DNA of 64,000 bases from Candidatus Krumholzibacteriia bacterium (GCA_041484665.1 JBGPIA010000001.1:704001-768000); one strand, 5' to 3'. Positions 33,786 through 51,937 are shown, numbered from the stretch's first letter. Numbers and translations: made by a program. The notes: generated by a model from the sequence alone, not told the origin.

Positions 33786-36700
33786 CTATTTCACGAGCAA
33801 CGCCTTCTTGACGTCGCGGAAATTGCTGGCCGCCAGCTCGTAGAGGTAGACTCCGCTGGCGACGAATCCTCCGCGATCGTCATGCCCATCCCACTCCACT
33901 GCGTGGTAACCCGCCGGCAGGTCCTGGGCGAGCAGGTTGCGCACGAGGCGCCCCGCCACATCGAACACGCGCAGCCGCACGAAGCCCTGCACCGGGGTCT
34001 CGAAGCGCAGCGTCGTGCGTGGGTTGAAGGGATTGGGGATGGCCGCGAGCAGGCGGAAGGCGCTGGGCGGCGTTACCACCGACGCGCGCGCCAGCTGCGC
34101 GATCTCAATTGCCAGCGTCTGACCGTCGACGCCGAGCGCTTGCACCTCGCGCGGCTGCAGGGCCCCGCCCAACTCGCCGAGCACCTCCAGCTGCAGGGTG
34201 AGCAGCGTGCCGTCGCCGCGCAGCGTGGCGCCCTGCCCGAGCACCGCCAGGTCGAGCACGACCGTCCCCGCTGCGGCGGACTGCCCGGCCGCGTCGGAGA
34301 CGAACACGGGAGCACCGGCAACGTCGAGCACGTCCGCGCGGCGGAAGCCCAGGTAACGCAGGCGCTGCCGGTCGTACTCCAGGGCGACGTGCAGCGCCTT
34401 GAGGGCGCCACCGTTGCCGCGGATCTGCAGTGGAAGGTCCACCTGCGCTGGCGCCCCAGACGCAGGCGTGCCGCCCAACGATCCGTTCGCGGGCTGCGCC
34501 CCGCCCGCAGGGGCGGTGAACGCCGGCTCGCCCAGGGCGATCCGCAACGGGCCGGAGTCGGGTTCCTGCGGCAGCACCGCCAGCGGCATCGCACCCAGCT
34601 TTGCCGGCGCCAAACCGAAATTCAGGGCGAAGACGACCAGGTCGCTGAAGTCGACCTTGCCGTCGGTCAACGGCAGTCCCGTGCCAGTGGCGTCGGAGGT
34701 GGGACCGATGTCGGCGCCGCCGAGGTAGGCGGCGTTCCCCCGCTGCAGTCCGTAGGTGAGGGACAGGACCGGGAGATCGTGGGCTCCGTCCACGCGTCCG
34801 TCGAAGGCGGGCACCGGCTGCCCGCCCGCGCCGAGGTCGCCCAAATCGCCCAGACGATAGTTGGTCGCACGCTTGCGTGGCGCGCTGGCCAGATCGGACA
34901 GATTCCCGGCCGCGTCGCGGCTGAGCGCGATCAGCGAGACGATCGTCCGCTGCGGCAGCGGCACCGTGTACGGCAAGGTGAGCGGCGCGTCGAGCTGCAG
35001 CTCGGTCCAGCCGTTGGCCGGAGCGCGCGCTTCGGTCAGGGTCGCAGGCCAGGCCGGGGCGGGCACCGCATCGTCGAAGTCCGGATATCCCGCATCGGCC
35101 GTGAGGCTCCAGGGACGGTAGAACAGTGTGAGCCCGGCAAAGTCGGCGGCGGGGGGCGTGATCCCCAGACGCACGCCCTGGTGAAGCGGCAGAAGCGTCA
35201 GCGCCGTCGGCGCGCCCGGCGGGGTCAGGTCGATGGCGCGCGCTGCGCCCACGGCCTGCGCAGAAAGCGACTGCGGCGGGTCGGCGACGTCCACCAGCCC
35301 CATCACGGTCAGCGGCAGCGCCGAGGCGCCCTCCGGCGCGCCCGGCTGGACCCGGAGCGTCACCGTCGCCAGCACTCCAAAGCCGTGCGCGCCCGGGGTG
35401 GCGCCGAGCAGGCTCTGGTCGATGCGGATGGTCCCAGGCGCGGACGTGTTGGCGGCGAAGAAGCTGGTCGCGCCGCCCGTCGTCTCCAGGAACGGCCCCT
35501 TGACCGCAGAGACCACGCTGAAGACCGCTGGGTCGTAGCCGATCTCGGCGCTCACCCCGCGCAGTGGATTGCCGCCGCCGAGATCGTCGTAGCGCAGGTC
35601 CAGGCTGGACTGCGCGGCGGCGGCGAGGGCGCCTGCGGCCGGGCTGAGGCTGAGCACGGGAGTGGGCGGCGGTGGCCCGAAGGTCGAGAAGCCCGTCGCG
35701 TAGCTCGCGGCCACCGCTAGGCCGTCGAGGGCGACGCGATAGATGCGCACCTGCCCTAGATCGCCGTCGAAGAAGTTGCCGTAGATGCCCGCGCCGCCCG
35801 AGGTGCCGCCGCCCAGCACGAGCTCGGAGACCTGGCTGCCCAAGCCCGTGGTGGCGCTACTGTAGCGCAGCGCGCCGTCCACGTAGGCACGTACGCCCGC
35901 TGCGTCGTAGGAGAGTGCGACGTGGTGGAACGTTCCCGCGGTCACCGGCGCGAGGGCGACCCAGCGAACTAGGCGCGCGCGCAGGGAGTCGTTCTGGACG
36001 GCGATCGCGCACCCCGGCCACGGACTCGCGTAGGACTGCACCCACTCCAACGCAATCTGGCGCGCGGCGAGATTGCTGCCAGCGGCGAGCCACAGCTCGA
36101 CGGTCGCCGTAGTGGGTGACTGGAGCGCGGCCAACCCCCCGGCCGAAAGCGTCGCGCGGTCGTCGATGCCGTCGAAGCGCAGCCGGTACGGATCGCCGCG
36201 CACGCCTTGGCCTCGCCAGCCGCTCGCGGCTCCCGGGGACGTAAACCCGGAGAGCCCCACCGCGCGGCCGGCGACAAGATCGACCCACGGCCCGGCGGCG
36301 CCGGGCACCGCGGGCGGCGTGGAGCCGTTGGCGCGATCGGCGCGCAGCTCGAACGCGAGGAGCGGCGGCGGCGAGAGCGTGAACCCGCCGGCCAGCACGC
36401 CGCTCTGGCCATTGGGGTTGGTAACCACCACGTCCCACGCACCCGGAGCTGCGCCCGTGAGGGGCAGATTGCAGGTAAGCTGCGTGGCACCGGCCACCGC
36501 CACGCTGGTCGCGACGATGTCGGGCTGGCCGGCGCGTCGCAGCCTCACGGTCGCGCCGGCCACGAACGCGTCGCCGGTGAGCTGGACGCCGGTGAGATTG
36601 CTCTCGTTGGTGGCCGCCGCGGGCAGGATCGTGGTGAGCAGCGGAGCGTTCGCGTAGAGCGCGGCGCTCTGGGCGAGGCGCACGGCGACCTGGCCCGCCG

Positions 36701-39700
36701 TCAGCGCGAAACCGTAGGCGCGCACCTCGCCGAGGGCCCCGTTGAACTCGTCGCTGTAGTGCCCAGCGCCGCCATAGGTGCCGCTGCCCAGCAGCAGCTC
36801 GCTGGCCTGACCGCCCAGATTCGCGGGCGTCGCGGTCAGCGTGCGCGCGCCATTGACGTAGGCGCACACCTGGCTGGCCGACTTCGTCACGGCCAGGTGC
36901 ACCCAGCGCTGGGGCGCCACGTTGGCGATCGATTGCCAGCTACCGTTGTAAACCTGCAGTTGCCCGTTCTGCAGCGCCACGCTCATGCCTGCAAACGGCG
37001 CGCCGTAGCTCGACAGCCACTCCAGCACGTACGAGCGCGTGAGCACGTCGGTGGGCGTCTTCAGCCACAGCTCCACGGTGGCTGCCGCGGGGTTCTGCAG
37101 TTGCGGGATGCTCCCGGCGGCGACGCGCGCCAGGTCGTCGACCCCGTCGAAGGCCAGCCGGTAGGGATCGCCCACCACTCCGCCGCCGTTCCAACCGCTG
37201 GCGGCGCCCGGGGTCGTGAAGCCCGAAAGCGCGGCGTTGTGCCCAGCAGCGAGGTCAACCCACGGCGATGCCGCGCCTGGCACCGCCGGCGCCGAGCTCC
37301 CGTTGGCCTGGGCCGCGCGCAGCTCCAGGGCCGCTGCGGGCGGCAGCGAGTGGTCGTAGACGAGCGCGGTGTCGCGCGCGCTCGCTCCCTGGCTGTCGGT
37401 GACGGTCAGGATGATCTCGAGATAGAGGTTTGCGCCCCCCGCAGTCCCCGGCACGATCGACGTCGTGGCGACGCCCGGCGGGTGGAGGTAGTTGGGGGTG
37501 GTACTGGCGCCGTTGTGCAGGTTGACCGTCCACATGTAGTGCAGCGCGCTCGGGGGATCCTCCACGTCGGTGGCGCTGGCGACGAGCGGCAGCGATGCCT
37601 GCGGATTGGTGTACTCACCGCCGTCGGCTGGCGCTGTGATGCTCGCTTGTGGGGGAAAGTTGCCCACCACCTGGATCGGGAAGGGCGCCGTGCCGAGCAA
37701 ACCGCTGCCGTCGGTCACCGTGAGAGTGGCGGTATAGCTGCCCGGATTCTGGTACACGTGCGCCGGGCTCGCCGTGGTCGAGGTTGCGCCGTCCCCGAAC
37801 GCCCACGCGTCGGTCAGGACGTCGCCGTCTGGATCGTAGGAGCTGTCGGTGAACTGCACCGTCAGCGGCGCGGACCCCGCGGCCGGCACTGCGGTGGCCG
37901 CAGCCACGGGAGGTACCTCGTTGAACGCCAGCCGTTGCAGGCGGGCGGTCACCGGCACGTCAAAATCCCAGGTCTTGGTGATGTACCCGACGCGCTGCAC
38001 GGGCGCGCCCACGGTCTGGGTTCCGGCGACGGTCCAGGGACTGGCATCGGCGGCGCGGTATTCGAACGAGTACGTGGAGCCCGTCTTCACCACGCGCAGG
38101 CTCAGCGTCGTCGCCGCACTCATAACGTTGAGCAGATTACTGGCGCCCGTGCGCTCCAGGCGCAGGTTGGTGCCGCGGTAGAAACCCCAGTAGAAAAGAT
38201 CGTAGGGGCCGAAGCCCACCATCAGACCGGAGTGGAACAGCTGCGCCGAGACGAAGCTGCTGAGCGTGACCCGCGTCTCCAGCGTCCAGTTCCCCGCGCC
38301 CATGTCGGTGCGGCGCAGCTGGGGCGCGCGGTCGATGGTGGGCGAGTGGTTGTAGGGGACCGACAGCGCGTTGGGAACCGCGAGGTCGAGGGGGAAGTGG
38401 GCCGGCGCGAAGGGCAGCGCCAGGCTCGGCCCCGGCAGCGGCGCGTACCATTCCCAAGCCTTGCTGGAGGGAATCACTGGCGCCGGCGCCGAGCGGGGGC
38501 TCACCTTCGGGGGCGCCTCGTTGTCCACCGCCTCGATCGTGTACGTGTAGGTGAGGCCATTGGCGATCGCCGAGACCGATCCGTCGTCGACGAACGAGTT
38601 CGCGACGACCGGAACCGGTGTGAGCTTCACCTCGGGCCCACCGAGCGCGCTCGTGCGGTAGACGTTGTAGCCGACCAGGTCGGACTCGGGGTTGTAGCCC
38701 CAGTTCAGCAGCACCTTGGCCTGCTGCGGAATCGCCCGCAGGCCGGTGGGCTGCACAGGCGCCACGCCGGCGCCGGTGGGTCCAGTGTAGTGGATGCGCA
38801 GGATCCGCTTGCTCGCCCACGAGCAATACATGAAGTCGCCACTCACCGGGTCGAGGCGGATCTCCACCGGATTGCCCAGATTGCTCCCGAAGTCCTGCAC
38901 GTCGACGACGTGGTCGCTGGCGTCGAGCACGGCCATGTTCAGCCAGCTCGATGGGTAGTCGCAGAAGAACAGCCGCTTGCGGTACTGGATGGGGTAGCCC
39001 GTTCCCTGGTAATAGGCGCCGCCGGCAGCGGCGTTGCCATAGATTCCGCCGATCGGCGCCGAGTCGGCGGTGAGGCCGTTGTGGGGCCATTCGATGCTTG
39101 GCGCGGTCAGCCCGGCGCCGCCGGGCGGGCACGCACCGCGGGGGGGAACGCCGGCGTACGGGTAGTCCGTCTGCTCGCCTGAGCCCTCGTTGCAGGGCCA
39201 GCCGAAGTTCTCGCCGCCCCTGCAGACGTTGATCTCCTCCCAGCGGTTCCAGCCCACGTCGCCGACGAACAGCGTGCCGGGGCGCGCGTCGGCGGGGTTG
39301 GTCGAGCCGCTGCCACGCCGGATGGTCATGCGGTATGGATTGCGCAGGCCACGGGCCCAGATGCGCGAGATGCTGCTGCGCGGATGGGCGGCGTCGTAGA
39401 AGGGATTGCTCGGGATGCCGTCGCCATTGGCGGGGTTCAGGCGCAGGATCTTGCCCGACAGGCTCCCCGTCCACTGCGAGCGATAGGCGCCGATGTCCTC
39501 GAGGGGATCGCTGCGCCCGGGCAGGAACTGATTGGGCTCGAGCCCGCCGGCGTCGGCGCGGTCGTAGTGAGCACCATCCCCGCAGGAGAACAGCAGCGTG
39601 CCGTCGTCGCCGAACAGCAGCGTTCCGGTGCTGTGCGAGTAGTATGCGGATGTGACGCCCAGCGGCCAGGTCTCTCCCACCAGCACGAGCCGGCTCGCCG

Positions 39701-40214
39701 GGTCGGCGATGTAGGGATTCGCGGTGCTCCGGGTATAGCGAACGATGCGCAAGAAGCCGAGCTGGTCCAGGTCCGGGGTGCCGGGATCGGTTTCGACGCT
39801 GTAGGCGAGGTAGAGGTAGCCGTTCGTGGCGTAATACGGGTCGAGCGCGATGCCCAGCATCCCGCGGTCCGCGTTGTCGAGCACCTCGGCCCCGAGGTCC
39901 AGGAATGGCATCGCGCGCCGGGTGTAGGTCGGGGGGCTGCCCCCAGCGGACTCGAGGATCTGCACCTGCCCGCGCTTCTCCGCCACGAAGATGCGTCCGT
40001 CGGGGGCGAAGGCGAGGCCCACGGGATCGACGAACGTGGCCGTTGGCGCGATGTCCATGGCCTGGAAGTTGTTTGGGAAGAGCTGGGCGCGCGCCGGCGC
40101 CGCGGGACCGAGGGCCAGCGCGGCGGTCGCGAGCAACCCCGCCATCGTCCGCCCGAGGGCGGCCCGGCCGGCCTTGCCGCACGGCCGGCGAGCATCACGA
40201 TGCGTGCGATCCAC
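33786..40214 (-). CDS. Large secreted multidomain protein (2142 aa): PQQ-dependent glucose/sorbosone dehydrogenase-like propeller, FN3, PKD, two LamG, IPT-like, cohesin-like, FN3/dockerin-like module, FlgD-Ig CTD
   Basis: AGGAGG RBS before GTG 40214; signal peptide; DRGMLGIALDP, GKILR, GLRNPYR, DVGW..WEE and NFGWP; PKD W.FGDG; CTD PNPFNP...WDG.D..G..VASGVY. Confidence 0.85.
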   Translation of the reverse strand: MDRTHRDARRPCGKAGRAALGRTMAGLLATAALALGPAAPARAQLFPNNFQAMDIAPTATFVDPVGLAFAPDGRIFVAEKRGQVQILESAGGSPPTYTRRAMPFLDLGAEVLDNADRGMLGIALDPYYATNGYLYLAYSVETDPGTPDLDQLGFLRIVRYTRSTANPYIADPASRLVLVGETWPLGVTSAYYSHSTGTLLFGDDGTLLFSCGDGAHYDRADAGGLEPNQFLPGRSDPLEDIGAYRSQWTGSLSGKILRLNPANGDGIPSNPFYDAAHPRSSISRIWARGLRNPYRMTIRRGSGSTNPADARPGTLFVGDVGWNRWEEINVCRGGENFGWPCNEGSGEQTDYPYAGVPPRGACPPGGAGLTAPSIEWPHNGLTADSAPIGGIYGNAAAGGAYYQGTGYPIQYRKRLFFCDYPSSWLNMAVLDASDHVVDVQDFGSNLGNPVEIRLDPVSGDFMYCSWASKRILRIHYTGPTGAGVAPVQPTGLRAIPQQAKVLLNWGYNPESDLVGYNVYRTSALGGPEVKLTPVPVVANSFVDDGSVSAIANGLTYTYTIEAVDNEAPPKVSPRSAPAPVIPSSKAWEWYAPLPGPSLALPFAPAHFPLDLAVPNALSVPYNHSPTIDRAPQLRRTDMGAGNWTLETRVTLSSFVSAQLFHSGLMVGFGPYDLFYWGFYRGTNLRLERTGASNLLNVMSAATTLSLRVVKTGSTYSFEYRAADASPWTVAGTQTVGAPVQRVGYITKTWDFDVPVTARLQRLAFNEVPPVAAATAVPAAGSAPLTVQFTDSSYDPDGDVLTDAWAFGDGATSTTASPAHVYQNPGSYTATLTVTDGSGLLGTAPFPIQVVGNFPPQASITAPADGGEYTNPQASLPLVASATDVEDPPSALHYMWTVNLHNGASTTPNYLHPPGVATTSIVPGTAGGANLYLEIILTVTDSQGASARDTALVYDHSLPPAAALELRAAQANGSSAPAVPGAASPWVDLAAGHNAALSGFTTPGAASGWNGGGVVGDPYRLAFDGVDDLARVAAGSIPQLQNPAAATVELWLKTPTDVLTRSYVLEWLSSYGAPFAGMSVALQNGQLQVYNGSWQSIANVAPQRWVHLAVTKSASQVCAYVNGARTLTATPANLGGQASELLLGSGTYGGAGHYSDEFNGALGEVRAYGFALTAGQVAVRLAQSAALYANAPLLTTILPAAATNESNLTGVQLTGDAFVAGATVRLRRAGQPDIVATSVAVAGATQLTCNLPLTGAAPGAWDVVVTNPNGQSGVLAGGFTLSPPPLLAFELRADRANGSTPPAVPGAAGPWVDLVAGRAVGLSGFTSPGAASGWRGQGVRGDPYRLRFDGIDDRATLSAGGLAALQSPTTATVELWLAAGSNLAARQIALEWVQSYASPWPGCAIAVQNDSLRARLVRWVALAPVTAGTFHHVALSYDAAGVRAYVDGALRYSSATTGLGSQVSELVLGGGTSGGAGIYGNFFDGDLGQVRIYRVALDGLAVAASYATGFSTFGPPPPTPVLSLSPAAGALAAAAQSSLDLRYDDLGGGNPLRGVSAEIGYDPAVFSVVSAVKGPFLETTGGATSFFAANTSAPGTIRIDQSLLGATPGAHGFGVLATVTLRVQPGAPEGASALPLTVMGLVDVADPPQSLSAQAVGAARAIDLTPPGAPTALTLLPLHQGVRLGITPPAADFAGLTLFYRPWSLTADAGYPDFDDAVPAPAWPATLTEARAPANGWTELQLDAPLTLPYTVPLPQRTIVSLIALSRDAAGNLSDLASAPRKRATNYRLGDLGDLGAGGQPVPAFDGRVDGAHDLPVLSLTYGLQRGNAAYLGGADIGPTSDATGTGLPLTDGKVDFSDLVVFALNFGLAPAKLGAMPLAVLPQEPDSGPLRIALGEPAFTAPAGGAQPANGSLGGTPASGAPAQVDLPLQIRGNGGALKALHVALEYDRQRLRYLGFRRADVLDVAGAPVFVSDAAGQSAAAGTVVLDLAVLGQGATLRGDGTLLTLQLEVLGELGGALQPREVQALGVDGQTLAIEIAQLARASVVTPPSAFRLLAAIPNPFNPRTTLRFETPVQGFVRLRVFDVAGRLVRNLLAQDLPAGYHAVEWDGHDDRGGFVASGVYLYELAASNFRDVKKALLVK
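34614..35222 (-). repeat. Copy A of an FN3-like plus dockerin-like module shared with the multiheme cytochrome
   Basis: YPDFDD, ANGW, RATNYRLGDLG, DGRVDGAHDLPVLSLTYG, DIGPT and PLTDGKVDFSDLVVFALNFG. Confidence 0.8.
35690..37343 (-). repeat. Internal duplication of a LamG-like domain (about 36660-37343 and 35690-36369), separated by an IPT-like domain
   Basis: Both copies read ELRA..ANGS..PAVPGAA.PWVDL.AG....LSGFT.PGAASGW.G.GV.GDPYRL.FDG.DD...ATVELWL. Confidence 0.8.
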
Positions 40215-40237
40215 GTTTCCTCCTGCGCCCAGCCGCG

Positions 40238-41146
40238 TCAGTCTACCCGGACGAGCTTGGCGGATGCGCGCCGTCCATCGGGCAGGGCCGCCACGGCGTA
40301 GTAGACGCCGCGTCCGACGAGCTGGCCCGCGGCATCGCGGCCATCCCACTGCACGACCCCCGGCTCCGCGCGCGCCGTGAAGGCGCGCACCCGGCGGCCA
40401 GCCACGTCGTGGATCACGATCAGCACCAAGTCTTGCTGGCCGCCTGCGGTGGCCAGGGGAGGACCTCCGCCCGGGGCGGCGCCGTTGACCGTGGCCGGTG
40501 CACCGGCCAAGGCGACCCCACCGAGGATCAGGAGCACGGGACCGCGCGACGGATTCGGCTCCGCGCGCAGGCGCAGCGCTGCCGGGCGCAGCGCCACAGG
40601 CGCATCGACCGTTCCGATGACGACCGTGGCCGTCCGCAGCGTGACGCCCGCGATGACGGCGCGGTCCACGTCGCGCAGAACGGCGTCGGTTAGCTGCACC
40701 GTGATCACTCCGTCGGCCAGGCCACGGAACGTCACCATGGCGAGCGTACCCGTAGCCGCGACGCTCGATCCGAAGCCGAGCACGCAGTCCGTGAGCACGT
40801 CGCGCCCCTGGGCGTCGCTCTCGAGGCTGAAGAACGTCGGCTGAGCAGCGCCGGAGAAGAGCGAGCCTTCCGCCGCAGAGACCAGTTCCAGCAGGTTGCG
40901 GTCGTACTGCAGGGTGAGGGCGTAGCACGATAGCCGCGACAGTCTGAGATCCGCCTCGATCGATAGGGTGAATTGCGTAGCGGGCGTCTGCCACATGTTG
41001 AACGGCTCGAAGTGGACGTCCTTGTTCTGGGCGTGCGATGCGGCTGCCGGCAGCGCAAGCGCCCCGGCCAGCAGTCCGATCCGCAGCGCATGCCGAACGC
41101 GCCCGCCGCCGCGTGCGAGCGCCGTTGGCTGATGGAGTGGACGCAT
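40238..41146 (-). CDS. Secreted cohesin-like domain protein with FlgD-Ig CTD
   Basis: Signal peptide; L.LQYD..LLEL.S..EG.LF...GTLA.VTF cohesin-like pattern; CTD PNP...IHDVAGR...WDGRD..G.....GVY; alternative start at 41167. Confidence 0.78.
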   Translation of the reverse strand: MRPLHQPTALARGGGRVRHALRIGLLAGALALPAAASHAQNKDVHFEPFNMWQTPATQFTLSIEADLRLSRLSCYALTLQYDRNLLELVSAAEGSLFSGAAQPTFFSLESDAQGRDVLTDCVLGFGSSVAATGTLAMVTFRGLADGVITVQLTDAVLRDVDRAVIAGVTLRTATVVIGTVDAPVALRPAALRLRAEPNPSRGPVLLILGGVALAGAPATVNGAAPGGGPPLATAGGQQDLVLIVIHDVAGRRVRAFTARAEPGVVQWDGRDAAGQLVGRGVYYAVAALPDGRRASAKLVRVD

Positions 41147-41182
41147 CGAGCAACTGCTCCTTCCCATTGGGGACCGCGCCGG

Positions 41183-44176
41183 CTAGCGCACCAGGGCCAT
41201 GCGCCGCAGGGCCGTCCGCCCTGCCGCCTCGGCGCGGGCCACGTACACGCCGCTGGCGACCGCTCTGCCGAGCTCGTCGGTGCCGTCCCAGACCAGCGCG
41301 TGTACGCCGGCCTCGTGGTGACCGCGCAGCAGCGTCTTGATCCGGCGGCCCGCCAGGTCGTACACGGCCACGTCGACGTCCGAGGGCGCCGCCAGCGTCA
41401 GCTCGAGCGTAGTGCGGGGATTGAACGGGTTGGGGATGTTGGGCGACACGGTGATCGCCGCGCGCGACGGCGGCGGCCGATCGCCACCGCGCAGCGTGAG
41501 CTGCGCGGGCAGCGGCGCGCCGGCGGCGTCGCGCACGTCGATCGCCGCGGTCGCAGCTGCCAGGTCGAACCCAGCTGAGGAACTCAGGATCAGCGTCGCC
41601 GCCAGGCCGTCGCGGCCCAGCCGCGTCCCCGGGCCCAGCAGGGCGATGTCCGCCGCGAGCTCGCCGTCGCGCGCGTACGCCTGCGCGAACGGCCGGCCCG
41701 GACCCTCCGTCAGGGCCGGGCCCGGCACCAGCCCCGGCGTGGGGACGGCGCGCGGTCCCGCGGTCAGGCCCACGTGCAGCGCCTTCACCCGGCCGGCGGC
41801 ACCCTCGACCTCGATCGGGATGCGCAGCTCGCCGTCGGCACCGAGCTGCGGCGGGCCGAGCGTGACGTACACGGGGCTCTCCGCCGCGGCCGAGGCGCCC
41901 GCCGCGAGCTTCTCGACCGTGGTGGGCACCGTCTCCAACAGCGGTCCGCCTGGATCGCTCGTCCCGAACGCCAGCGCGAAGGTCACCAGATCGCCGAAGT
42001 CGATCGCGTCGTCGGTGAGCGGGACCCCGCGGCTGGTGCCGTTGTCGGTGGGACCGATGTCGCACTCGGGGTTGAAGCCCGGCTGTCCGTCGTGGGTCCC
42101 GTAGGCGAGGGAAAAGACCGGTAGGTCGTGCACCCCGTTGACCACTCCGTCGTAGGTCTGTGGCACGCCGACTTCGCCCAAGTCGCCCAGCAGGTATGTG
42201 GTTGCCCGCGCGCGGGCAGCGGCGGTGCCGAAGGCGGGGATGCCGGCCGCGCTGTAGGTGTACGCCGCGTAGTAGGCCACGGCACGCGTGGCATTGGTGA
42301 AGCTCGCGTCGACGAAGCTGGTCCCCGTGCCGTCGTAGACCTGGACCCAGCCGTTCGCCAGCGCGTGATCCAACTGGACCTGGTCGGCGGGCGGCGGCAC
42401 CGCGGCCGGGGGATCGCCGAATTCGGGATAGTCGTTGTAGAGCTTGCGCAGCACCTTCACGCCCGCGACCGGCGGTCCGGGAATCCACGAGAGCACGACC
42501 CGATTGTGGCCGGGGACGGCCTGCAGCGCCGCCACGTTGGCCGGCGCCTGGGCCACCGGGATGCTGGCGCTGCCGCTGGTCATGTCCACCGGCGCGCTCT
42601 GCCCGTAACTCGACCAGTAGCTGTAGATCTTGTCGCCGCGGCTTTGGGCGTTGGGGTAACCACGGTCCTTGGGGTCGGGGCCGCTGTGGTTCTCGTCGCG
42701 CAGGAACTCCACGTACTCCCGCGAGGTGGTCTGGTAGCGCAGCATGGCGGTGACCCGCATCGGCCCCGCGATGCCCGCGGGCACCGGGATCGCGTACGTC
42801 ACGTCATCCCAGTGCGGGAGCTGGCCACCCGGCAACGGTACATAGTCGGCGCCGACGGGGGCGGTCTGCGCGTCGGGGACCATGCCGCGCGGCGGGATGC
42901 GGTTGTCCTTGACGATGCGGTTGTTCAGCACGAGGTGGAAGGTCGGCCCCTGCCCCTGCACGCCATGGCGCACTTCGTAGACCCGCAGCTGCGCATCGGC
43001 CACCAGCGTCGCGGTCGCACCGTCGTAGGCGCCCGACTCGAAGAACGGGACGCCGAAGACGTCCTTGGCCACGACGCTGAGCCACATGCGCCGCCCCTCG
43101 GGATAGCCGGTCGGGAGCTTGTGGCCCGTGTTGTTGGTCACGCGCACGGTGACTGCCACGCTGTCGCCAGCCACGGCCTGCGGCGGGACCGTGATCCCCA
43201 ACGTCGCGGCTTGCGTCTGCAGCATGGAGAGCGCCTGGTTGATCGTGTAGGTGTACGCGGCGGTGCGGTTGAGCAGCTGCCCATAGAGTCCGCGGAGGAT
43301 CGCCGGCACGAAGGTGTTCGCCCCGGTGAAGTCATGGCGCGAGATGTCGGACCGGAACGGATTGAAGGAGTTGCAGGCGTAGCCAGCCACCTCCGGCATG
43401 TGGCAGGTTTGGCACTGCTCCCCCTCGGCGGGAAACGCGCTCTGGAGCCACTCGCTGTAGGTCAGCTGCTCGGGGAACTGGAGCCCCGTGGGCTGGCCGT
43501 TGGCATCGAGCAGCTCCACCAGCGGGTTGCGCAGGTCGTGGCAGGCGGCGCAGAACTCGCTGCTCATGTGGTACGGCGAGGACGCGAAGGCGTGGGGGGC
43601 GAACGCGTCGGCGTACGGTCCACGGCGCGGCGGCTGCGCCGCCGGCGTGCCGTCGTCGACGTAGTACTGGCCGTTCTGCTTGAAGGGCGTGCCGCCAGGC
43701 CCCTCGTACGCCCGGTGGCAGAAGGCGCACGAGATCCCTTCGAAGTCGTTGTCCGGCTCGTCGGGATATCCGGTGAGCGCGCTGCCGTTGGGGACGCTGC
43801 TGCGCCCGCCCAGCCAGCCGGCCGGCGAATGGCAGCGGATGCAGAACTCGCCCACGCCGGCGTGGTCCTGGTTGGCCACGTCCAGCGCCGCCCAGAACAG
43901 CGGGTCGCGGGCTGAGTTGGCCATCATCGTGCCGGCCCACGTGTCGAACGGCTCGTAGTCGAGCCCCGCGATGTAGCCGCCGTGGCACGTCTTGCAGTCG
44001 CGCGGGAGCATGCCCCGCACGGCATTGCTGGGATCGGTGAACTCCAGCGGCCAGTTGACCAGCGTCCCCGGTTGGGTGCCCGGCAGCACGATCTGTGCGT
44101 GAGCTGGCGCACCACCCATCGCCAGCCGGGCGGTCAGCGCGAGCGCAAACGCGAGCCTAACCTGCAGGTGTTGCAT
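41183..44176 (-). CDS. Secreted pentaheme c-type cytochrome fused to FN3/dockerin-like, cohesin-like and FlgD-Ig domains (997 aa)
   Basis: Signal peptide; CKTCH, CIRCH, CAFCH, CAACH and CQTCH; GHKLPTGYPEGRR; CTD PNPFNP...WDGTD..G..VASGVY. Confidence 0.88.
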   Translation of the reverse strand: MQHLQVRLAFALALTARLAMGGAPAHAQIVLPGTQPGTLVNWPLEFTDPSNAVRGMLPRDCKTCHGGYIAGLDYEPFDTWAGTMMANSARDPLFWAALDVANQDHAGVGEFCIRCHSPAGWLGGRSSVPNGSALTGYPDEPDNDFEGISCAFCHRAYEGPGGTPFKQNGQYYVDDGTPAAQPPRRGPYADAFAPHAFASSPYHMSSEFCAACHDLRNPLVELLDANGQPTGLQFPEQLTYSEWLQSAFPAEGEQCQTCHMPEVAGYACNSFNPFRSDISRHDFTGANTFVPAILRGLYGQLLNRTAAYTYTINQALSMLQTQAATLGITVPPQAVAGDSVAVTVRVTNNTGHKLPTGYPEGRRMWLSVVAKDVFGVPFFESGAYDGATATLVADAQLRVYEVRHGVQGQGPTFHLVLNNRIVKDNRIPPRGMVPDAQTAPVGADYVPLPGGQLPHWDDVTYAIPVPAGIAGPMRVTAMLRYQTTSREYVEFLRDENHSGPDPKDRGYPNAQSRGDKIYSYWSSYGQSAPVDMTSGSASIPVAQAPANVAALQAVPGHNRVVLSWIPGPPVAGVKVLRKLYNDYPEFGDPPAAVPPPADQVQLDHALANGWVQVYDGTGTSFVDASFTNATRAVAYYAAYTYSAAGIPAFGTAAARARATTYLLGDLGEVGVPQTYDGVVNGVHDLPVFSLAYGTHDGQPGFNPECDIGPTDNGTSRGVPLTDDAIDFGDLVTFALAFGTSDPGGPLLETVPTTVEKLAAGASAAAESPVYVTLGPPQLGADGELRIPIEVEGAAGRVKALHVGLTAGPRAVPTPGLVPGPALTEGPGRPFAQAYARDGELAADIALLGPGTRLGRDGLAATLILSSSAGFDLAAATAAIDVRDAAGAPLPAQLTLRGGDRPPPSRAAITVSPNIPNPFNPRTTLELTLAAPSDVDVAVYDLAGRRIKTLLRGHHEAGVHALVWDGTDELGRAVASGVYVARAEAAGRTALRRMALVR
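41963..42547 (-). repeat. Copy B of the FN3-like plus dockerin-like module
   Basis: YPEFGD, ANGW, RATTYLLGDLG, DGVVNGVHDLPVFSLAYG, DIGPT and PLTDDAIDFGDLVTFALAFG. Confidence 0.8.
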
Positions 44177-44353: not shown

Positions 44354-45115
44354 CTAGCCGCGCTTCAAGGATACCACAGCGCGGCCGGTCGCGGGCGCGC
44401 CAGCCAGTGGTTTCGCAGGCGCGCCGCCAGACGCCGAGACCGCGCGCTGCGCCTCACCGCGGTGGGGGCCCAGGTTGGCCAGCAGTCCCAGGTTGTTCAG
44501 CAACTCCTGGATGCCGTCGTCGGTAGCGGCGTAGTAGCCCCGGATGCGTCCTTCCTGGTCCACGAGCACGAAGCGCTCCCCGTGGACGATGTCGAAGAAT
44601 CCGGTGTCCTCCACCGCGGTCCGCTGCATCGCGATCTTGAAGCCGTCGACAATCGTCGACTGCAGGACGTCCAGCGGCCCGGTCAGGAAGGTCCACATGT
44701 CGTGCCGTGCGTGGTAGCGGTCGGCGTAGGCGCGCAGCACCAGCGGCGTGTCGCGCTGTGGATCCACGCTGAACGAGACCAGGTGGGCGGCGTTGCCGAC
44801 GTTGCGCAGGTGGTACTGGAGGTCCGACATGCGCTGGCTGAGCCGCGGGCAGGCTTCCGCGCAGCTCGTGAAGATGAAATCGGCCACCCACACGTGGCCC
44901 CGCAGGTCAGCCAACCCGAACGGCTTGCCGTCCTGGTCTTGGAGCTGGAAGGCGGGCAGCTGTCCGTAGACGGGCGGCGGAGGCGGCAACTGGCGGCCCA
45001 CCGAGCGGGCGATGGGCAGGGCGAACGCCAGCCCTATGAGCCCCACCCAGAAGAAGCGGTTGCCCGTGAGCCGGAAGGCGAGGCGTTGCACCGTGGTCTT
45101 GAGCATGGGCGTCAT
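44354..45115 (-). CDS. SCO1/SenC copper chaperone
   Basis: FIFTSCAEACP (CxxxC), SVDP.RDTP and IVH...F.LVD..G.IRGYY; AGGAGG RBS; start 45115 or 45106. Confidence 0.92.
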   Translation of the reverse strand: MTPMLKTTVQRLAFRLTGNRFFWVGLIGLAFALPIARSVGRQLPPPPPVYGQLPAFQLQDQDGKPFGLADLRGHVWVADFIFTSCAEACPRLSQRMSDLQYHLRNVGNAAHLVSFSVDPQRDTPLVLRAYADRYHARHDMWTFLTGPLDVLQSTIVDGFKIAMQRTAVEDTGFFDIVHGERFVLVDQEGRIRGYYAATDDGIQELLNNLGLLANLGPHRGEAQRAVSASGGAPAKPLAGAPATGRAVVSLKRG

Positions 45116-45168
45116 CCTCCTCGCGCCGATCCCGGGGGCGCCCGCCACGGGCGACCGCGGTCGGGCCG

Positions 45169-46119
45169 CTATCCCTTTGACTGGCCCTGCGCCGGGGGCG
45201 CCGTCCAGGGCGGCTGGTTGCGCAGCATCGCCTTCAGCTGGAGAGCCTCGGACGTCCCGCGCAGGCGCGCGAGCGAGCGCACGTAGTACGCCAGCGCCCA
45301 CAGCTGCTCGTCAGGAAGCGAGCCCTCCCAGGTCGGCATGGCCGTGCCGCCGATTCCCGCCGCGATCGTCCGGTACAGGTCGGCCAGGTCCGTGCCCGAG
45401 CGGATGCGGTGGAAGGTGAAGTCGGGCGGATAGATCTTTACGCCGTAGTCGCTGTCCTTCAGCTCGGGGGTGTAGATCTTCGCGTCGAGATCGGTGCGCC
45501 CGACTCCGGTGAGCTCCACGCCCGCCGTGTAGATCTCCGGATAGGTGGCGTAGGCCGGGTGGCAGGACAGGCACTGTGCCAGGCCGTGGTAGAGCTTCTT
45601 GCCCAGCGCCACGGCTGCTGCTTCGCGCGCGGGCCCGAAGGGATCCTCCGGAGCCACGATCGGCTTGCCCTTCTCCTCCTGCGGATCGGTCCAGCGCGGT
45701 GAGAACGTCTTGATGTACTGGACCACCGCCTCCAGCCGCCGGTCGGAGATGTCCCACGGCAGCATGGCCGTGCCGTCGAGACCGCGGCGGACGATGCGTT
45801 TGAAATCGTCGTCATTGGGCAGGGAGCCCGACTCCACGGCCACGAACTTGTAGGTGCCCTGCCGGAAGTCCCGCGGCGGAGGCCGCAGCCCTTTGGACGC
45901 CGGGCCCTTGCCGTCGCCATTCACGCCGTGGCAGGCGCGGCAGTACTGCAGGTAGGTGTCGCGGCCGAGGTTCAGCGTCGCCGCCTCGACCTTCACGCCG
46001 CCCAGGGTCACGGGCTCCTTGAAGTGCCGCTGGACGCAGCCGCCCAGCAGCGACGCGGCGGTGAGGGCCAGTGCCGCGCCGGCGGCCCCGAGCAGTGGCG
46101 TGCGCGAGGAGTGCATCAC
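45169..46119 (-). CDS. Diheme c-type cytochrome, probable lipoprotein
   Basis: CRACH and CLSCH; two GTAM motifs; lipobox-like LLGGC. Confidence 0.88.
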   Translation of the reverse strand: MMHSSRTPLLGAAGAALALTAASLLGGCVQRHFKEPVTLGGVKVEAATLNLGRDTYLQYCRACHGVNGDGKGPASKGLRPPPRDFRQGTYKFVAVESGSLPNDDDFKRIVRRGLDGTAMLPWDISDRRLEAVVQYIKTFSPRWTDPQEEKGKPIVAPEDPFGPAREAAAVALGKKLYHGLAQCLSCHPAYATYPEIYTAGVELTGVGRTDLDAKIYTPELKDSDYGVKIYPPDFTFHRIRSGTDLADLYRTIAAGIGGTAMPTWEGSLPDEQLWALAYYVRSLARLRGTSEALQLKAMLRNQPPWTAPPAQGQSKG

Positions 46120-46191
46120 GGAGACTGTCCTCTCCCCCCATGGCGGCGCAGTGCTCGGCCGCGACCTGCGGCCGGCCAGCGTGCCACGCGC

Positions 46192-46779
46192 CTAGAGCAC
46201 GAAGATCGCCACGAACATGATGATCCACACCAGGTCCACGAAGTGCCAGTACATCGAAACGGGCTGCACGGGAAGGCGCCCTGTGCCCGCACCGCCGGCC
46301 GCACCGGCGCGCGCCGCCAGCCAGGCCAGCGCCGCGAGCCCGCCCAGCACGTGCAGCGCGTGCAGAACCGTCAGCGCGTAGAAGACCGAGCCGAACACGC
46401 CCTGCGGCACGATCCCGCTGCGCAGCGTGCGCATCCACAGCAGCACCTGCAGCGCTACGAAGCAGGCACCCAGGCCGATCGCCGCCCATGCGCCGCGCGC
46501 CAGAGCGCCGCGCTTTCCGGCGCTCTGCTGCCGCGCGCCGTGCGCCAGCGCGAAGCTGCTCGCGCCCAGCACGAAGGTGTTGGCCAATGCCTGCGCGAGC
46601 GGCAGTGGCCCCGTCCCGGGCGGCGGCCAGACCGGCTGCTGGACGCGCAGCACGACGTAGGCCAAGAACAGGGTGGCAAAGAGCATCAGCCACGACGCCA
46701 GGGCGATCGTCATCCCCACGTAGGAGGTCGCCCGGTCGTCGTCCCGCGCTGGCGCAGGCATGATCGCCGTCATGTGCAT
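46192..46779 (-). CDS. ctaE: Heme-copper oxidase subunit III-like protein
   Basis: NT.VL..SS, FY.LT..H..HV..G and YWHFVD.VW. Confidence 0.88.
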   Translation of the reverse strand: MHMTAIMPAPARDDDRATSYVGMTIALASWLMLFATLFLAYVVLRVQQPVWPPPGTGPLPLAQALANTFVLGASSFALAHGARQQSAGKRGALARGAWAAIGLGACFVALQVLLWMRTLRSGIVPQGVFGSVFYALTVLHALHVLGGLAALAWLAARAGAAGGAGTGRLPVQPVSMYWHFVDLVWIIMFVAIFVL

Positions 46780-46797
46780 GGGCAGGCCGCTCCAGGA

Positions 46798-48576
46798 TCA
46801 GCTGTGGGCAGGCTGGCTCACCAGCTCCGTGCGCGCGATACGTTCGGCCGCCGGCGGATCGTCCGGCAGGCGTTCGGCCTGGCCGATCCAGTCCTTCGCC
46901 GTTTGCCGCGGATTGTTGAACTCGTGGGGGCCATGGTAGATGACGGGGATCTCCTTGAAGTTGTAATGGGGCACGGGCGTGGGCGTGGACCACTCCAGCG
47001 TCCCGACCTCCCACGGGTTGTCCGTGGCCTTCGCCCCCGCGAAGAAGCTCTTGAAGAAGTTGATGACGAAGAGCAGCTGCACCGCCCCCAGGATCAGAGC
47101 CGCGACGGTGATGAACTTGTTGAGCGGCTCGAGGTGTTGCAGATACGTGTAGACGGAGTGGTTGTAGATGCGCCGGTGCATCCCGGCCCACCCCCCGAAC
47201 AGCATCCCGCAGAACACGAAGTTGATGGGGAAGAAGGATAGCCAGAAGTGCAGCTTGCCGAGCCGCTCGTCCATCATCCGGCCGAACATCTTGGGGAACC
47301 AGTAGTAGATCGCCGCGAAGGAGCCCAGCAGCACCGCGGCTGCCATCGTCAGGTGGAAGTGCCCCACCACGAAGTAGGTATCGTGCAGGTAGAGATCGGT
47401 GCTGATGGAGGCGAGGTAGAGCCCCGTCAGGCCGCCCAGCCCGAACACGAACACCACACCGAGCGAGAACAGCATGGGCACGGTCAGGCGCAGCTTCCCC
47501 TTCCAGATGGTGTGGCACCAGTTGAGGAAGAGCAGCTCGGCGGGCACGCTGATGATCATGGTCAGCAGCATGAAGCTCTGCCCGAGCAATGGGCTCAGGC
47601 CCGTCGAGAACATGTGGTGCCCGTACACGACGGCCGACATGACCGTGATGGCGCCCATGGCGAACACGCTGAGCTTGTAGCCGTAGGCTGGCTTGCGCGC
47701 GAAGAACGCCAGCAGGTCGCCGATCACTCCCCAGGCCGGCAGGATGAGGATGTAGACCTCGGGGTGGCCGAAGATCCAGAACAGGTGCTGGAACAGGACG
47801 GGATCGCCGCCACCGTTGGTCACTGCGGCGCCGGCCGTGAAGAACTGCGTCCCGAACACGCGATCGAAGAACAGCAGCATCATCGCAGCGCCCAGCACGG
47901 GCACGAACAGCGCGTTCAGCACGGCCGTGTACCACATGCCCCACACGGTGAGCGGCATGTCCATGTAGCCCATGCCCGGCGCCCGCAGCCGGATCACGGT
48001 GGTAACGTAGTTCACGGCCCCCATGATCGTGCCCGTTCCGGTGAGGAACACCCCCACCACCCAGAACGTCTGCCCCAGCCCAGGCTGGCCGATCTTGGTA
48101 CTCAACGTGGGATAAGCGGTCCAGCCGCCGGCCGCGGCTCCCTGCGGCACGAACAGCGACACGAACATGACAACGCCCGCCGACAGCGCAAACCAGAACG
48201 AGAGCATGTTCAGCGTCGGGAAGGCCATGTCGCGGGCGCCGATCATGAGTGGGATGCAGAAGTTCCCGAAGCAGCCGATCAGGATCGGCGTGATAGCGAA
48301 GAAGATCATGATCGTGCCGTGCATGGTGAACAGGCTGGCGTAGGCGTCGGGAGGCACCGCTCCGTCGGTGTCCGGGTAGAAGATCTTCCCCACCAGCGGG
48401 ATGGCGTGGCCGGGGTGCGCCACGTTCCAGCGGATGAACATCGCCATCGTCCCGCCCACCAGCAGCCAGAAGAGGCCGAAGAAGAGGAACTGCTTGGCGA
48501 TGACTTTATGGTCCCGGGAGAAGACGTACTTTGCGACGAACGTCGTCGGAGCTGGATGGATGTGATCGTCGCTCAT
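46798..48576 (-). CDS. ctaD: Cytochrome c oxidase subunit I (A1-type HPEVY)
   Basis: TMHG, DMAFP, FWIFGHPEVY, GHHM, HDTYFVVGHFH and GM.RR; ATG overlaps the subunit II stop. Confidence 0.96.
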   Translation of the reverse strand: MSDDHIHPAPTTFVAKYVFSRDHKVIAKQFLFFGLFWLLVGGTMAMFIRWNVAHPGHAIPLVGKIFYPDTDGAVPPDAYASLFTMHGTIMIFFAITPILIGCFGNFCIPLMIGARDMAFPTLNMLSFWFALSAGVVMFVSLFVPQGAAAGGWTAYPTLSTKIGQPGLGQTFWVVGVFLTGTGTIMGAVNYVTTVIRLRAPGMGYMDMPLTVWGMWYTAVLNALFVPVLGAAMMLLFFDRVFGTQFFTAGAAVTNGGGDPVLFQHLFWIFGHPEVYILILPAWGVIGDLLAFFARKPAYGYKLSVFAMGAITVMSAVVYGHHMFSTGLSPLLGQSFMLLTMIISVPAELLFLNWCHTIWKGKLRLTVPMLFSLGVVFVFGLGGLTGLYLASISTDLYLHDTYFVVGHFHLTMAAAVLLGSFAAIYYWFPKMFGRMMDERLGKLHFWLSFFPINFVFCGMLFGGWAGMHRRIYNHSVYTYLQHLEPLNKFITVAALILGAVQLLFVINFFKSFFAGAKATDNPWEVGTLEWSTPTPVPHYNFKEIPVIYHGPHEFNNPRQTAKDWIGQAERLPDDPPAAERIARTELVSQPAHS

Positions 48577-49430
48577 CGCGTCTTCTCCCATTCCCAGCCC
48601 CAGAGGGCCTCGGCGTCCGTCGGATCGAAGCTCGCGACGGCGAAGCGGGCCGCCTCGGCGTACCAGCGCTCGAAGTCCTCCTGGGCCTCGATGGTCATCG
48701 TCCCCCTCATCTTGTAGTGCTCCAGCCCGCACATCTCGGCGCACACGATCTCGTAGCTGCCGGTCTTCACCGGCGTGAAGGTGTAGCGCGTCACGCGGCC
48801 GGGGTTGGCGTCTTGCTTGGTGCGGACGTTGGGCAAGAAGAAGCTGTGGATCACGTCCTTCGCCTTGAGCTGGACCAATACGCGGCGCCCCACCGGTAGG
48901 TGGAGGTCATTGAGCGTGATGATGTCGTCGCCCGTGTTGAACTGCCCGTCGGCGCCGGCGTAACGGATGTTCCATGCCCACTGCTGCGGCATGATCTCCA
49001 CGCGGAAGACTTCACTGCCATCCGTGAAATTCCAGAAGGCCTGCTTGAGGTCGTAGTAGCTGTGCACCAGCAGCGTCCCGTCCACCACAAAGAAGATCGC
49101 CGCCGAGATGGCGGCCGCGATGAGCAGGTCGCGGACGTGGCCGCCTTGGTGGTGGTAGTTCACCTGGTGCCTGCTCCCGGTGCGATGGGCGAGCATGGGC
49201 CAGAAGAGCAGGAAGCACAGGATCAGGAACAGCACAGCCAACATGATCGTGACCGTGTAGAAGAGCGAGTCGACGCGGTGCCCGTCCAGGGAGATGTCCG
49301 GCGCCGGCTTCATCCAATGGAACGGATCGCGCGCCCCGGTGCCATCGGCGAGCGCCAGCGCGGGCAGGGCGATGATGGGCAGCAGGACCAGGACACCGGC
49401 AAGGTACGCGCGCGCGCGGCCTGTCCTCAT
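48573..49430 (-). CDS. ctaC: Cytochrome c oxidase subunit II
   Basis: QWAW...Y, DVIHSF and the CuA motif CAEMCGLEHYKM. Confidence 0.94.
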   Translation of the reverse strand: MRTGRARAYLAGVLVLLPIIALPALALADGTGARDPFHWMKPAPDISLDGHRVDSLFYTVTIMLAVLFLILCFLLFWPMLAHRTGSRHQVNYHHQGGHVRDLLIAAAISAAIFFVVDGTLLVHSYYDLKQAFWNFTDGSEVFRVEIMPQQWAWNIRYAGADGQFNTGDDIITLNDLHLPVGRRVLVQLKAKDVIHSFFLPNVRTKQDANPGRVTRYTFTPVKTGSYEIVCAEMCGLEHYKMRGTMTIEAQEDFERWYAEAARFAVASFDPTDAEALWGWEWEKTR

Positions 49431-49732
49431 GGGTGCCTTTCGTCGCGAGCAGCGGCGGAGAGCCCGGTGGGATAGACGAGACGGCCCGCAGCCACCGCCA
49501 CGGGGAGCCCGTCCTCGCTGCGCCTGGTCCGAGCGCGGGTGCGCCGGCGGATCATCAGCACGGCGCCGCCGAACACCCCGAACGGCACGCCGAGGAAGCT
49601 CATGACCACGGGCAGAGTGGTGCGCGCCTTCTGGTCCGACTGGATACACGCCGGACAGGCCAGCGCCAGGCCGGGGCAAAGCAGCAGGGTCAGCAGGCAG
49701 ACGAATAGGGCCGCGCGGCTGCGCGTCGCCAC
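49427..49732 (-). CDS. Small exported membrane protein with ACPAC (CxxC) motif
   Basis: Signal peptide ending in ALA-CPAC, one TM helix, basic tail; stop overlaps the subunit II ATG; start 49732 or 49753. Confidence 0.65.
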   Translation of the reverse strand: MATRSRAALFVCLLTLLLCPGLALACPACIQSDQKARTTLPVVMSFLGVPFGVFGGAVLMIRRRTRARTRRSEDGLPVAVAAGRLVYPTGLSAAARDERHP

Positions 49733-49799
49733 AGAGCATCTCGATGCCGGCAAGCCTGGGTTCCTTTTTCGACAGCAGGGGGGTAGCTGAGGATGGGCG

Positions 49800-49970
49800 A
49801 ATCTAACCGGCGTCGCGCAGAACTGTCAACTCCCGCAGGCCGGCGCGATCAAACCCGGCGAGTGCGGCCCGGGCGGGGCGGCCGGGCGCGGACGCGGCGC
49901 CGCGGGCGCACGGGAATCGTGCCGCTCTCGTGCCGCTGGCGTTGACACCGGCACGCTCCTCGCGTAACGA
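49800..49970. promoter_or_regulatory. Divergent sigma70-type promoters between the two oxidase operons
   Basis: Minus strand TTGACA-18 nt-TAGATT (49829-49800); plus strand TTGACA-17 nt-TAACGA (49942-49970). Confidence 0.55.
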
Positions 49971-50047
49971 TTGCCCGCTGTTGTGGGTGCGCGCCCGCCG
50001 CCCCCGGCGGCTCCCCTAGGCGGAACACGCGCAGAAAGGTAGACGCG

Positions 50048-50683
50048 GTGAGTCAGGCAGAGGCGGCCGCCCCGGTGCGCCATGGTGCGCTCCATCGGCA
50101 GTCGTTCTCCATCGACCGCTACTTCGGGACCGCGACGCCGGGGAAGATCGGGATGTGGATCTTCCTCGTGGCGGACGCCATGGGTTTTGGGGGGCTGCTG
50201 ATCGCCTACGCCAATCTGCGGCGCTCCACGACGTGGCCGAACCCGGCCCACGTCCTGGGCATCCAGATCTCGGGTGTCGCCACCTTCATCCTGATCTGCA
50301 GCAGCGTCTCGATGGTCCTGGCGGTGGCCGCCGCGCAGGCCGCCAACCGCAAGGCGCTGATCCGTTATCTGGCGCTGACCATCCTGGGTGGCCTGGTCTT
50401 CCTGAGCATCCAGGCGACCGAGTACACCAAGCTCGTGCGCGAGGGCATGGGCTTCGCCCACTTCAGCCACGGCACGGGCCTTTTCGGCTCGACGTTCTAC
50501 TCGATCACGGGATTCCACGGGTGCCACGTGTTCTCCGGCGTGATCTACCTGACGGTGATCCTGCTCAAGTCGCTGCGCGGCCGGTACGACGGCGACGCCA
50601 GCCACGTAGAGCTCGTCGGGCTGTTCTGGCACTTCGTGGACCTGATCTGGATCCTCGTCTTCACCTTCGTCTACCTGCTCTAG
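50048..50683 (+). CDS. ctaE: Cytochrome c oxidase subunit III, second copy
   Basis: GMWIFL..D...F, TFILI.SS, FY.ITGFHG.HV and GLFWHFVD.IW. Confidence 0.92.
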   Translation: MSQAEAAAPVRHGALHRQSFSIDRYFGTATPGKIGMWIFLVADAMGFGGLLIAYANLRRSTTWPNPAHVLGIQISGVATFILICSSVSMVLAVAAAQAANRKALIRYLALTILGGLVFLSIQATEYTKLVREGMGFAHFSHGTGLFGSTFYSITGFHGCHVFSGVIYLTVILLKSLRGRYDGDASHVELVGLFWHFVDLIWILVFTFVYLL

Positions 50684-50694
50684 CGGGGGGCTCC

Positions 50695-50970: not shown

Positions 50971-51037
50971 GCGCCAGGGCCTGCGCGCGGCCCCACGGCG
51001 CTCGTGCGGGGCGGCCGGGCGGGCCGATGCCTACGCC

Positions 51038-51478: not shown

Positions 51479-51503
51479 GCCGTGCACACGAGGGAGTAGG
51501 GTC

Positions 51504-51821: not shown

Positions 51822-51937
51822 AGCGCCGAGGCGGCCGGCGGCGGGAGGCCCTGCGGCAGGGACGCCGGCAGCGGGAGCGTAACCGGCCACGTAGAAAGCA
51901 GGCGGTCGCTGGATGCGCGCCAGCACGGGCGCCGGCC

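Follow-up and report, generated by a model that had tools for sequence, protein, structure and literature searches.

Pentaheme cytochrome and dehydrogenase-like propeller proteins that share a class-wide cohesin–dockerin cassette in Candidatus Krumholzibacteriia

Introduction

The published cohesin–dockerin assemblies found in our literature search carry hydrolases or peptidases. In the type II cohesin/X-dockerin pairs of A. cellulolyticus (4u3s) and C. thermocellum CipA (3kcp), an immunoglobulin (Ig)-like module directly precedes a two-loop dockerin, and the CipA C terminus is ordered cohesin, X module, dockerin. Non-cellulosomal systems with surface tails have already been inferred in Ca. 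Stygibacter (Cloacimonadota), an uncultured Gram-negative in which cohesin and dockerin proteins carry a C-terminal surface-attachment domain and a 3,755-amino-acid (aa) scaffoldin accompanies hydrolase and peptidase cargo (PMC8542988, in excerpt). Here we examine a three-gene locus (33786..44176; g1, g2 and g3 in transcription order) of a Candidatus Krumholzibacteriia bacterium, in which docking modules of this kind are joined to a pentaheme cytochrome in g1 and to a dehydrogenase-like propeller in g3. The locus lies in a 64,000-nucleotide (nt) stretch of DNA, the window (GCA_041484665.1 JBGPIA010000001.1:704001-768000), from a genome that is 94% complete (G000).

The locus shares with the clostridial pairs the cohesin fold and the Ig-like module directly before the dockerin, and with the CipA C terminus the order of the three modules. 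It departs from them in the insertions that interrupt both calcium loops, in the second cohesin and type IX secretion system (T9SS)-like tail that follow the dockerin, in its Gram-negative host and redox cargo, and in having no multi-cohesin scaffoldin. Unlike in Ca. Stygibacter, both docking modules lie on each large subunit, with a cytochrome and a dehydrogenase-like domain as cargo. On the cargo side, the fungal PQQ pyranose dehydrogenase CcPDH (AA8 cytochrome-AA12-CBM1) and cellobiose dehydrogenase are analogues in function, in which a secreted dehydrogenase of propeller type works outside the cell with a heme domain and a carbohydrate-binding module (PMC6881789, PMC5960967 and PMC4332668, in excerpt); they are single chains with heme b, whereas here two chains, one with a c-type pentaheme domain, are predicted to be joined through cohesin and dockerin. 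The pentaheme cytochrome (PHC) family, represented by c552 of T. tepidum (5ZE8) and MccSep/ExtKL of Geobacter (9WT8), has periplasmic members, as described in the available portions of bioRxiv 10.1101/2025.11.18.688581 and PMC11976967, whereas g1 has a surface tail, a dockerin and a Tyr in place of selenocysteine (Sec).

We tentatively read the trio, with rather less than even confidence, as a redox variant of a class-wide cohesin–dockerin cassette, in which the cytochrome would be docked on the propeller protein and electrons would pass from the propeller to the hemes. Domain anatomy, folds, gene order and co-occurrence are direct observations, from which the later steps are inferred. The three proteins likely come together at the cell surface, where they are predicted to form a unit that passes electrons. 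What is new is the union of the cassette with a Tyr-type cytochrome, together with evidence from domain fusions. A full-text search, with subscription journals outside its reach, found no paper joining cohesin–dockerin systems with multiheme cytochromes or describing this cassette in this class, and a literature search of the same reach found none that connects FlgD-type tails in these phyla with T9SS.

Module anatomy of the locus

The three genes lie on the minus strand, 36 nt (g1–g2) and 23 nt (g2–g3) apart with starts as called, in the arrangement given by a first-pass annotation of the DNA. g1 (41183..44176; 997 aa) encodes a secreted pentaheme cytochrome (c552/MccSep-type fold, Tyr-type) followed by fibronectin type III (Fn3), dockerin-like and degenerate cohesin modules and a T9SS-like tail; the five CxxCH motifs counted in that annotation fall at positions 61, 112, 150, 209 and 255. 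g2 (40238..41146; 302 aa) is, as had been proposed, mostly a single cohesin (aa 41-177) ahead of a T9SS-like tail: Pfam Cohesin matches it at E 0.003 only, and its family profile matches cohesins, the best being 3l8q (E 2e-9). g3 (33786..40214; 2142 aa) starts with a GTG behind AGGAGG and runs through a GSDH-type propeller, Fn3-like, ConA-like, two PKD-type, LamG, IPT-like and LamG modules, then cohesin, Fn3, dockerin-like, cohesin and a T9SS-like tail. Pfam recovers the series originally described for g3, with GSDH (E 9e-27), PKD, two Laminin_G_3 and Cohesin (E 4e-7) above cut-off; the Fn3-like, ConA-like, second PKD-type and IPT-like modules are assigned by sequence pattern or weak matches. 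The coding frames of g1–g3 have a high GC content at third codon positions (GC3, 0.84-0.93), and by this measure open reading frames on the opposite strand were rejected as shadow frames. A 2900-aa reading of g3 from 42488 was also discarded, since it overlaps g1 and g2 and the in-frame coding signal begins near 40200.

Each product begins with a putative signal peptide, recognised by eye from a hydrophobic stretch, an AxA motif and Gln at +1, and ends in a Pfam FlgD_ig match, that of g2 falling under cut-off. The g1 tail (41186..41452) matches PF13860 at E 5e-11 and the T9SS type A domain model TIGR04183 at 24.8 bits (cut-off 23); the g3 tail (33789..34061) matches PF13860 at E 2e-8 and TIGR04183 below cut-off, and g2 is unlisted for the latter. 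The C-terminal cassette common to g1 and g3 extends over their last ~450-480 residues (493 columns, 35% identity, E 5e-43). In both proteins an Fn3 module stands ahead of the dockerin-like segment and a cohesin behind it, an arrangement missed in the first reading. The Fn3-dockerin-like-cohesin cassette of g3 covers aa 1666-2040 (34095..35219) and is preceded by a first cohesin at aa 1518-1652 (35259..35663; PF00963 above cut-off), while in g1 the Fn3-dockerin-like dyad (aa 545-742; 41951..42544) has the degenerate cohesin on its 3′ side (aa 768-893; 41498..41875; family profile E 2e-12).

Examined domain by domain, fold or profile comparison places the modules among cohesins and dockerins, and the cohesins match the nine-stranded jelly-roll fold. 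The duplicated dockerin-like pattern consists of two calcium-loop/helix repeats, in which D1790, D1813, D1835 and D1858 are invariant in 54/54 family members and D1851 in 53/54. None of these 54 scores above cut-off with Pfam Dockerin_1 (best E 0.064), because both calcium loops hold insertions; searched against the PDB, the family profile returns seven matches, all seven of them cellulosomal dockerin-bearing chains, led by 4u3s_B (E 9e-6, positions 6-83). In a model of the Fn3-dockerin-cohesin unit the dockerin helices fall at residues 150-157 and 193-202, and fold-search matches span residues 1-123 and 225-383 only. No chain at the locus has more than two cohesins, G000 yields three Pfam cohesin matches and no tandem arrays, and Pfam finds no glycoside hydrolase domain in g1 or g3 that would make them plant-wall hydrolases. 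Two other G000 loci (G000:C44:4995-6563 and G000:C9:15978-27008) have canonical dockerins and cohesin-dockerin-cohesin-tail proteins; one adjoins a small cohesin gene and the other sits within a run of secreted Ig-rich genes.

Linkage of the cytochrome and the propeller

The trio is syntenic elsewhere: in the DNA of a second genome (G003) all three genes recur with their order unchanged, amid multiheme cytochrome genes. In a large protein set, the full g1 architecture recurs in 23 further clusters, giving 24 cytochrome-dockerin clusters in all, and the g3 architecture recurs in nine orthologues, seven of them with a dockerin. For six of the nine, the longest contig is identical in size to that of a g1 orthologue (249607, 50482, 28976, 16808, 14642 and 9741 nt); two others match a g2 orthologue in the same way, and the contig of the last is too short for both. 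DNA confirms the g1–g3 pairing in G003 only, the other five pairs being deduced from equal contig size. A metagenome scan with g1 returned 41 loci with no full-length orthologue among them and added no synteny.

Two of the g3 orthologues (P0130 and P0131) keep the first cohesin and have lost the Fn3-dockerin-cohesin unit, while their matching cytochromes retain the dockerin, which suggests that this first cohesin may be the docking site of the cytochrome. In a tree of 85 Fn3-dockerins built by a quick method, 27 cytochrome rows and 8/9 propeller rows form one branch (Shimodaira–Hasegawa-like approximate likelihood ratio test (SH-aLRT) 94), with P0133, on a long branch, outside it. A one-residue insertion is common to 35/36 redox dockerin rows and occurs in 2/49 others. 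The clade and the insertion would fit a shared specificity class or, equally, local duplication.

Among the 119 g3 homologues listed, the same pentaheme domain shares a chain with the propeller in P0164 (E 3e-83) and P0172 (E 2e-85); the pentaheme-Ig domain fused in P0161, P0162, P0167 and P0168 is more distant (E 5e-29 to 4e-25). These fusions represent two lineages, and at the level of sequence the propeller and pentaheme domains are linked independently of the cassette. A multiheme gene is present at 5/6 propeller-anchored loci of at least 15 kb, compared with 3/27 and 0/25 dockerin-anchored loci and 9/211 tail genes in G000.

A conserved cluster convergent with the propeller gene (L215:14214-20000, L216, L217 and L219) encodes a cytochrome b, 9-heme and 10-heme proteins, a 530-aa protein and a 5-6-heme cytochrome; the 530-aa protein has no Pfam or NCBIfam match.

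A Tyr-type pentaheme cytochrome

The pentaheme and Ig-like domain of g1 (aa 29-545; 42542..44092) combines five c-type hemes with an Ig-like domain, as MccSep/ExtKL does, and its fold matches 5ze8; MccSep itself is absent from the match rows. Candidate distal heme ligands are H195, H203, H281, H352, H414 and M85, and K353, Y358, E360 and R362 are invariant. The Sec/Cys position of MccSep (325) is occupied by Tyr in the g1 family (Y358 in 104/104), and there is no heme-ligating Cys where MccSep has Cys239: position 237 is E/Q in 104/104 and position 236 is I/E/V/M in 103/104. With these substitutions and a score of 29.8 bits against the ExtKL family model (cut-off 250), we rejected membership of g1 among the MccSep/ExtKL polysulfide reductases. 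The cytochrome is probably a c552/MccSep-fold enzyme rather than a plain relay. The usual form of g1-type cytochrome in the class (L023-L034, for example L024:9084-11711) is a ~900-aa six-heme protein without the cassette, made up of an unannotated ~250-aa N-terminal part, the cytochrome and a tail.

A class-wide cassette

The dockerin profile matches 123/208 genomes of the class. Within G000 the cassette is confined to g1 and g3, and the FlgD-type tail is commonplace, occurring on 211/4180 called genes, a spread that the first reading did not note. Relatives follow a stereotyped layout, in which one to three large genes ordered cargo, optional cohesin, Fn3, dockerin, cohesin and tail stand with a small cohesin-tail gene like g2 and often a cohesin-only gene. 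In an independent scan, whose loci partly overlap those used to describe the layout, the small cohesin gene is present at 49/67 loci with called genes (1/68 gave none) and at 24/25 loci of at least 16 kb. Of the 95 dockerin proteins from the 67 loci, none has the g1-type cytochrome, the g3-type propeller or two CxxCH motifs. Fifty cargo segments (47 N-terminal parts and three inserts, most inserts being left out) comprise 16 β-helix, 3 GH5, 2 DUF4082, 2 InlB-repeat, 2 Fn3-type and 1 LamG with DUF362, 22 of no family, and the G003 orthologues of g1 and g3. Redox cargo is thus the exception on a class-wide cassette that mostly carries β-helix, GH5, lectin-like or unannotated cargo. These counts overturn the original idea of a scaffold built for electron transfer, and g2 was rejected as a redox-specific adaptor, the small cohesin gene being a generic companion of the cassette across the class.

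Cassette proteins with GH5 (L069, L073 and L067) stand in tandem with other cassette genes around one small cohesin gene and are the most cellulosome-like version of the system. Of the small genes next to cassette genes that encode only a cohesin or a double cohesin, most have no FlgD tail and finish with a short one of Trp/Phe-Gly-x-x-Lys type (14/38 by strict pattern, ~30 by eye; examples are L068, L074-L076, L078-L081, L087, L089, L090, L092-L096, L100, L102 and others, and G000:C44:4173-4835). Their products are candidate envelope anchors of the system, and none lies at the g1–g3 locus.

Alternative readings

Several observations weigh against a cytochrome that docks on the propeller protein and takes electrons from it. 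Cytochrome domain matches occur in 96/208 class genomes (four candidates scored per genome), and the alignment reaches into the cassette only in G000 and G003, stopping short of it in 94/96; the propeller subfamily was found in 10/208. Because the cytochrome is mostly off-cassette and the propeller rare, the cytochrome would usually work without a propeller partner. Four of the five propeller-multiheme neighbourhoods come from one genus, are convergently oriented and hold other cytochrome types, so the five count as about two events. The fusions can be chance, because tail-bearing proteins shuffle domains freely. A search for PorP in G000 was negative, with its control silent as well.

A further difficulty concerns which cohesin the dockerin binds. 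A cohesin follows directly after the dockerin in 138/149 complete dockerin proteins, and the Fn3-dockerin-cohesin model reaches a predicted template modelling score (pTM) of 0.87 across a low-confidence linker; the site on the dockerin may thus be taken up in cis. The dockerin and its following cohesin would then form a stalk that is rigid, or else a surface polymer made by domain swapping, with cytochrome and propeller coupled and co-displayed rather than mutually plugged, a reading also favoured by the cohesin-dockerin-cohesin-tail grammar of two unrelated G000 genes and by a locus that has no multi-cohesin scaffoldin. We consider it unlikely: 8/24 cytochrome orthologues retain the dockerin with a second cohesin that is either degenerate or not detected, and the free single-cohesin genes at 24/25 full-length loci imply partners in trans. 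Covariation of the dockerin with the second, first and small cohesins is non-discriminating (top z 8.0, 7.9 and 6.1, against 5.5, 5.0 and 5.1 in shuffles that ignore kinship); for the dockerin and the small cohesin, the covarying pairs gather on helix 1 of the former and strands 3 and 6 of the latter, a pattern that is no more than suggestive (effective n 37).

The propeller raises the other main alternative. The six-bladed GSDH-type propeller of g3 (aa 45-480; 38775..40082) belongs to the same family as soluble glucose dehydrogenase (sGDH; 1c9u) and E. coli Asd (2g8s) and differs from both in its fusion to lectin-like and docking modules. It keeps the equivalents of sGDH His144, Asp163, Arg228 and Asn229; H194, R291 and N292, which correspond to His144, Arg228 and Asn229, are invariant in 120/120 rows, as is an extra Arg295. 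The Gln231 equivalent is absent, no conserved Arg or Lys stands at the equivalents of K377 and R406/R408 across the 120 rows, and when the family profile is aligned to Asd (2g8s) and 7cdy, neither the RxR motif nor the Lys site is matched by basic residues. Arg406 is a further partner of the carboxylates of pyrroloquinoline quinone (PQQ). Lys377 and Arg408 are such partners in PMC6881789, and His144, Arg228 and Asn229 are the catalytic residues in PMC6881810 (both in excerpt). The top single-sequence PDB match of the propeller is HHIP, a non-enzyme, and the Pfam GSDH match ends at model position 296/332, with no AA12 match reported for g3 in the Pfam scan. No pqqC scored above cut-off in any of five scanned genomes with the propeller (G000 and four others), and G000 gave no TENA/PqqC match.

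The propeller might be an HHIP-like binding module or a domain for another cofactor that has nothing to do with the cytochrome, g3 a glycan-binding adhesin of the kind most cassette cargo represents, and g1 a stand-alone Tyr-type pentaheme enzyme that took its cassette from its neighbour. Such an account suits the predominance of β-helix, GH5 and unassigned segments among the 50 examined, and sister dockerins are compatible with local duplication; it appears improbable to us beside the invariance of the catalytic His, Arg and Asn and of Arg295, and the fusions of propeller with pentaheme domain in two lineages. PQQ is bound by fungal AA12 enzymes that have no K377 equivalent (PMC6881789, in excerpt), which keeps PQQ use by the propeller conceivable and, in our estimate, near even. 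The earlier label of PQQ-type dehydrogenase stands for the GSDH fold and the catalytic His, Arg and Asn; dependence on PQQ is doubtful, with the K377 and R406/R408 equivalents and pqqC all missing. A PqqD-like gene at C1:94371 of G000, with no pqqC, is followed by lasso-peptide-type maturation-like genes (by eye; G000:C1:94332-96053).

Proposed export and mechanism

Returning to the tentative reading of a cytochrome docked on the propeller protein, a type IX-like export route is plausible because G000 holds SprA, PorV and five C25 peptidases, one of them beside PorV. The three proteins would leave the cytoplasm through the Sec pathway, with heme attached in the periplasm, and reach the surface via SprA/PorV with PorU-like processing. 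There the g1 dockerin would bind the first cohesin of g3 in trans in a calcium-dependent manner, the single cohesin of g2 could cap or anchor a free dockerin, and the ConA/LamG modules may hold the complex on glycan. The His/Arg/Asn site of the propeller would oxidise a sugar-like substrate with a quinone-type cofactor that the cell seems not to make, either PQQ that it scavenges and binds in an atypical mode or a different cofactor. Electrons would enter at an exposed heme and move to heme 2, where a Tyr/Lys/Glu/Arg pocket, in place of Cys/Sec, might reduce a small acceptor by analogy with MccSep; alternatively, they might be handed to a porin-cytochrome conduit. The fullest version of this scheme, a 'redoxosome' in which a calcium-dependent surface assembly of cohesin and dockerin plugs a quinoprotein of the propeller subfamily into a Tyr-type pentaheme enzyme, as a bacterial counterpart of cellobiose and pyranose dehydrogenases with its own dockerin specificity class within the class-wide docking system, is doubtful.

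Should docking and electron transfer both hold, the trio would represent a natural redox use of cohesin and dockerin and a T9SS-like cargo compatible with heme maturation. It would also supply a concrete partner and assay for two large families, the Tyr-type pentaheme cytochromes (5,546 matches among 8,000 candidates, a number inflated by the shared tail) and the propellers that bear a PQQ dehydrogenase annotation but have no PQQ clamp. The cassette, present in 123 class genomes and overlooked by the Pfam dockerin model, is a source of new cohesin–dockerin pairs.

Oxidase neighbourhood and further cytochrome loci

Upstream of g1 and co-oriented with it, as first annotated, lies a cox2-cox1-cox3-diheme cytochrome c-SCO run (44354..49430, minus strand), 177 nt away. 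In G003, the one other genome checked, all four cox1 matches lie on other contigs, which places the oxidase neighbourhood outside the conserved unit; a heme O synthase-like UbiA gene is divergent beside g1 there. That the trio is a respiratory input co-transcribed with the heme-copper oxidase, its extracellular sugar oxidation feeding the diheme cytochrome c and the oxidase, is very improbable: the co-orientation, the gap without a terminator-like site, the one sigma-70-like promoter at 49829 and the UbiA gene in G003 speak for it, but the outer membrane lies between surface-exported proteins and the periplasm-facing oxidase, and in G003 the trio sits away from every cox1 match, amid multiheme cytochrome genes. 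A look-up of RNA sequencing runs listed none.

Heme-copper oxidase genes occupy both strands of the window at 45169-54005, with the run described above on the minus strand and a second cox3, DUF420 and a fused CtaA-CtaB on the plus strand; a second cox1 is on C8. A large multiheme cluster at G000:C2:704650-738256 encodes proteins with 4 to 42 CxxCH motifs together with cytochrome b-like, Rieske-like and possible barrel genes, and from its gene content is a possible outer-membrane electron conduit. Proteins with 23 and 31 hemes are encoded at C11:110233-115067.
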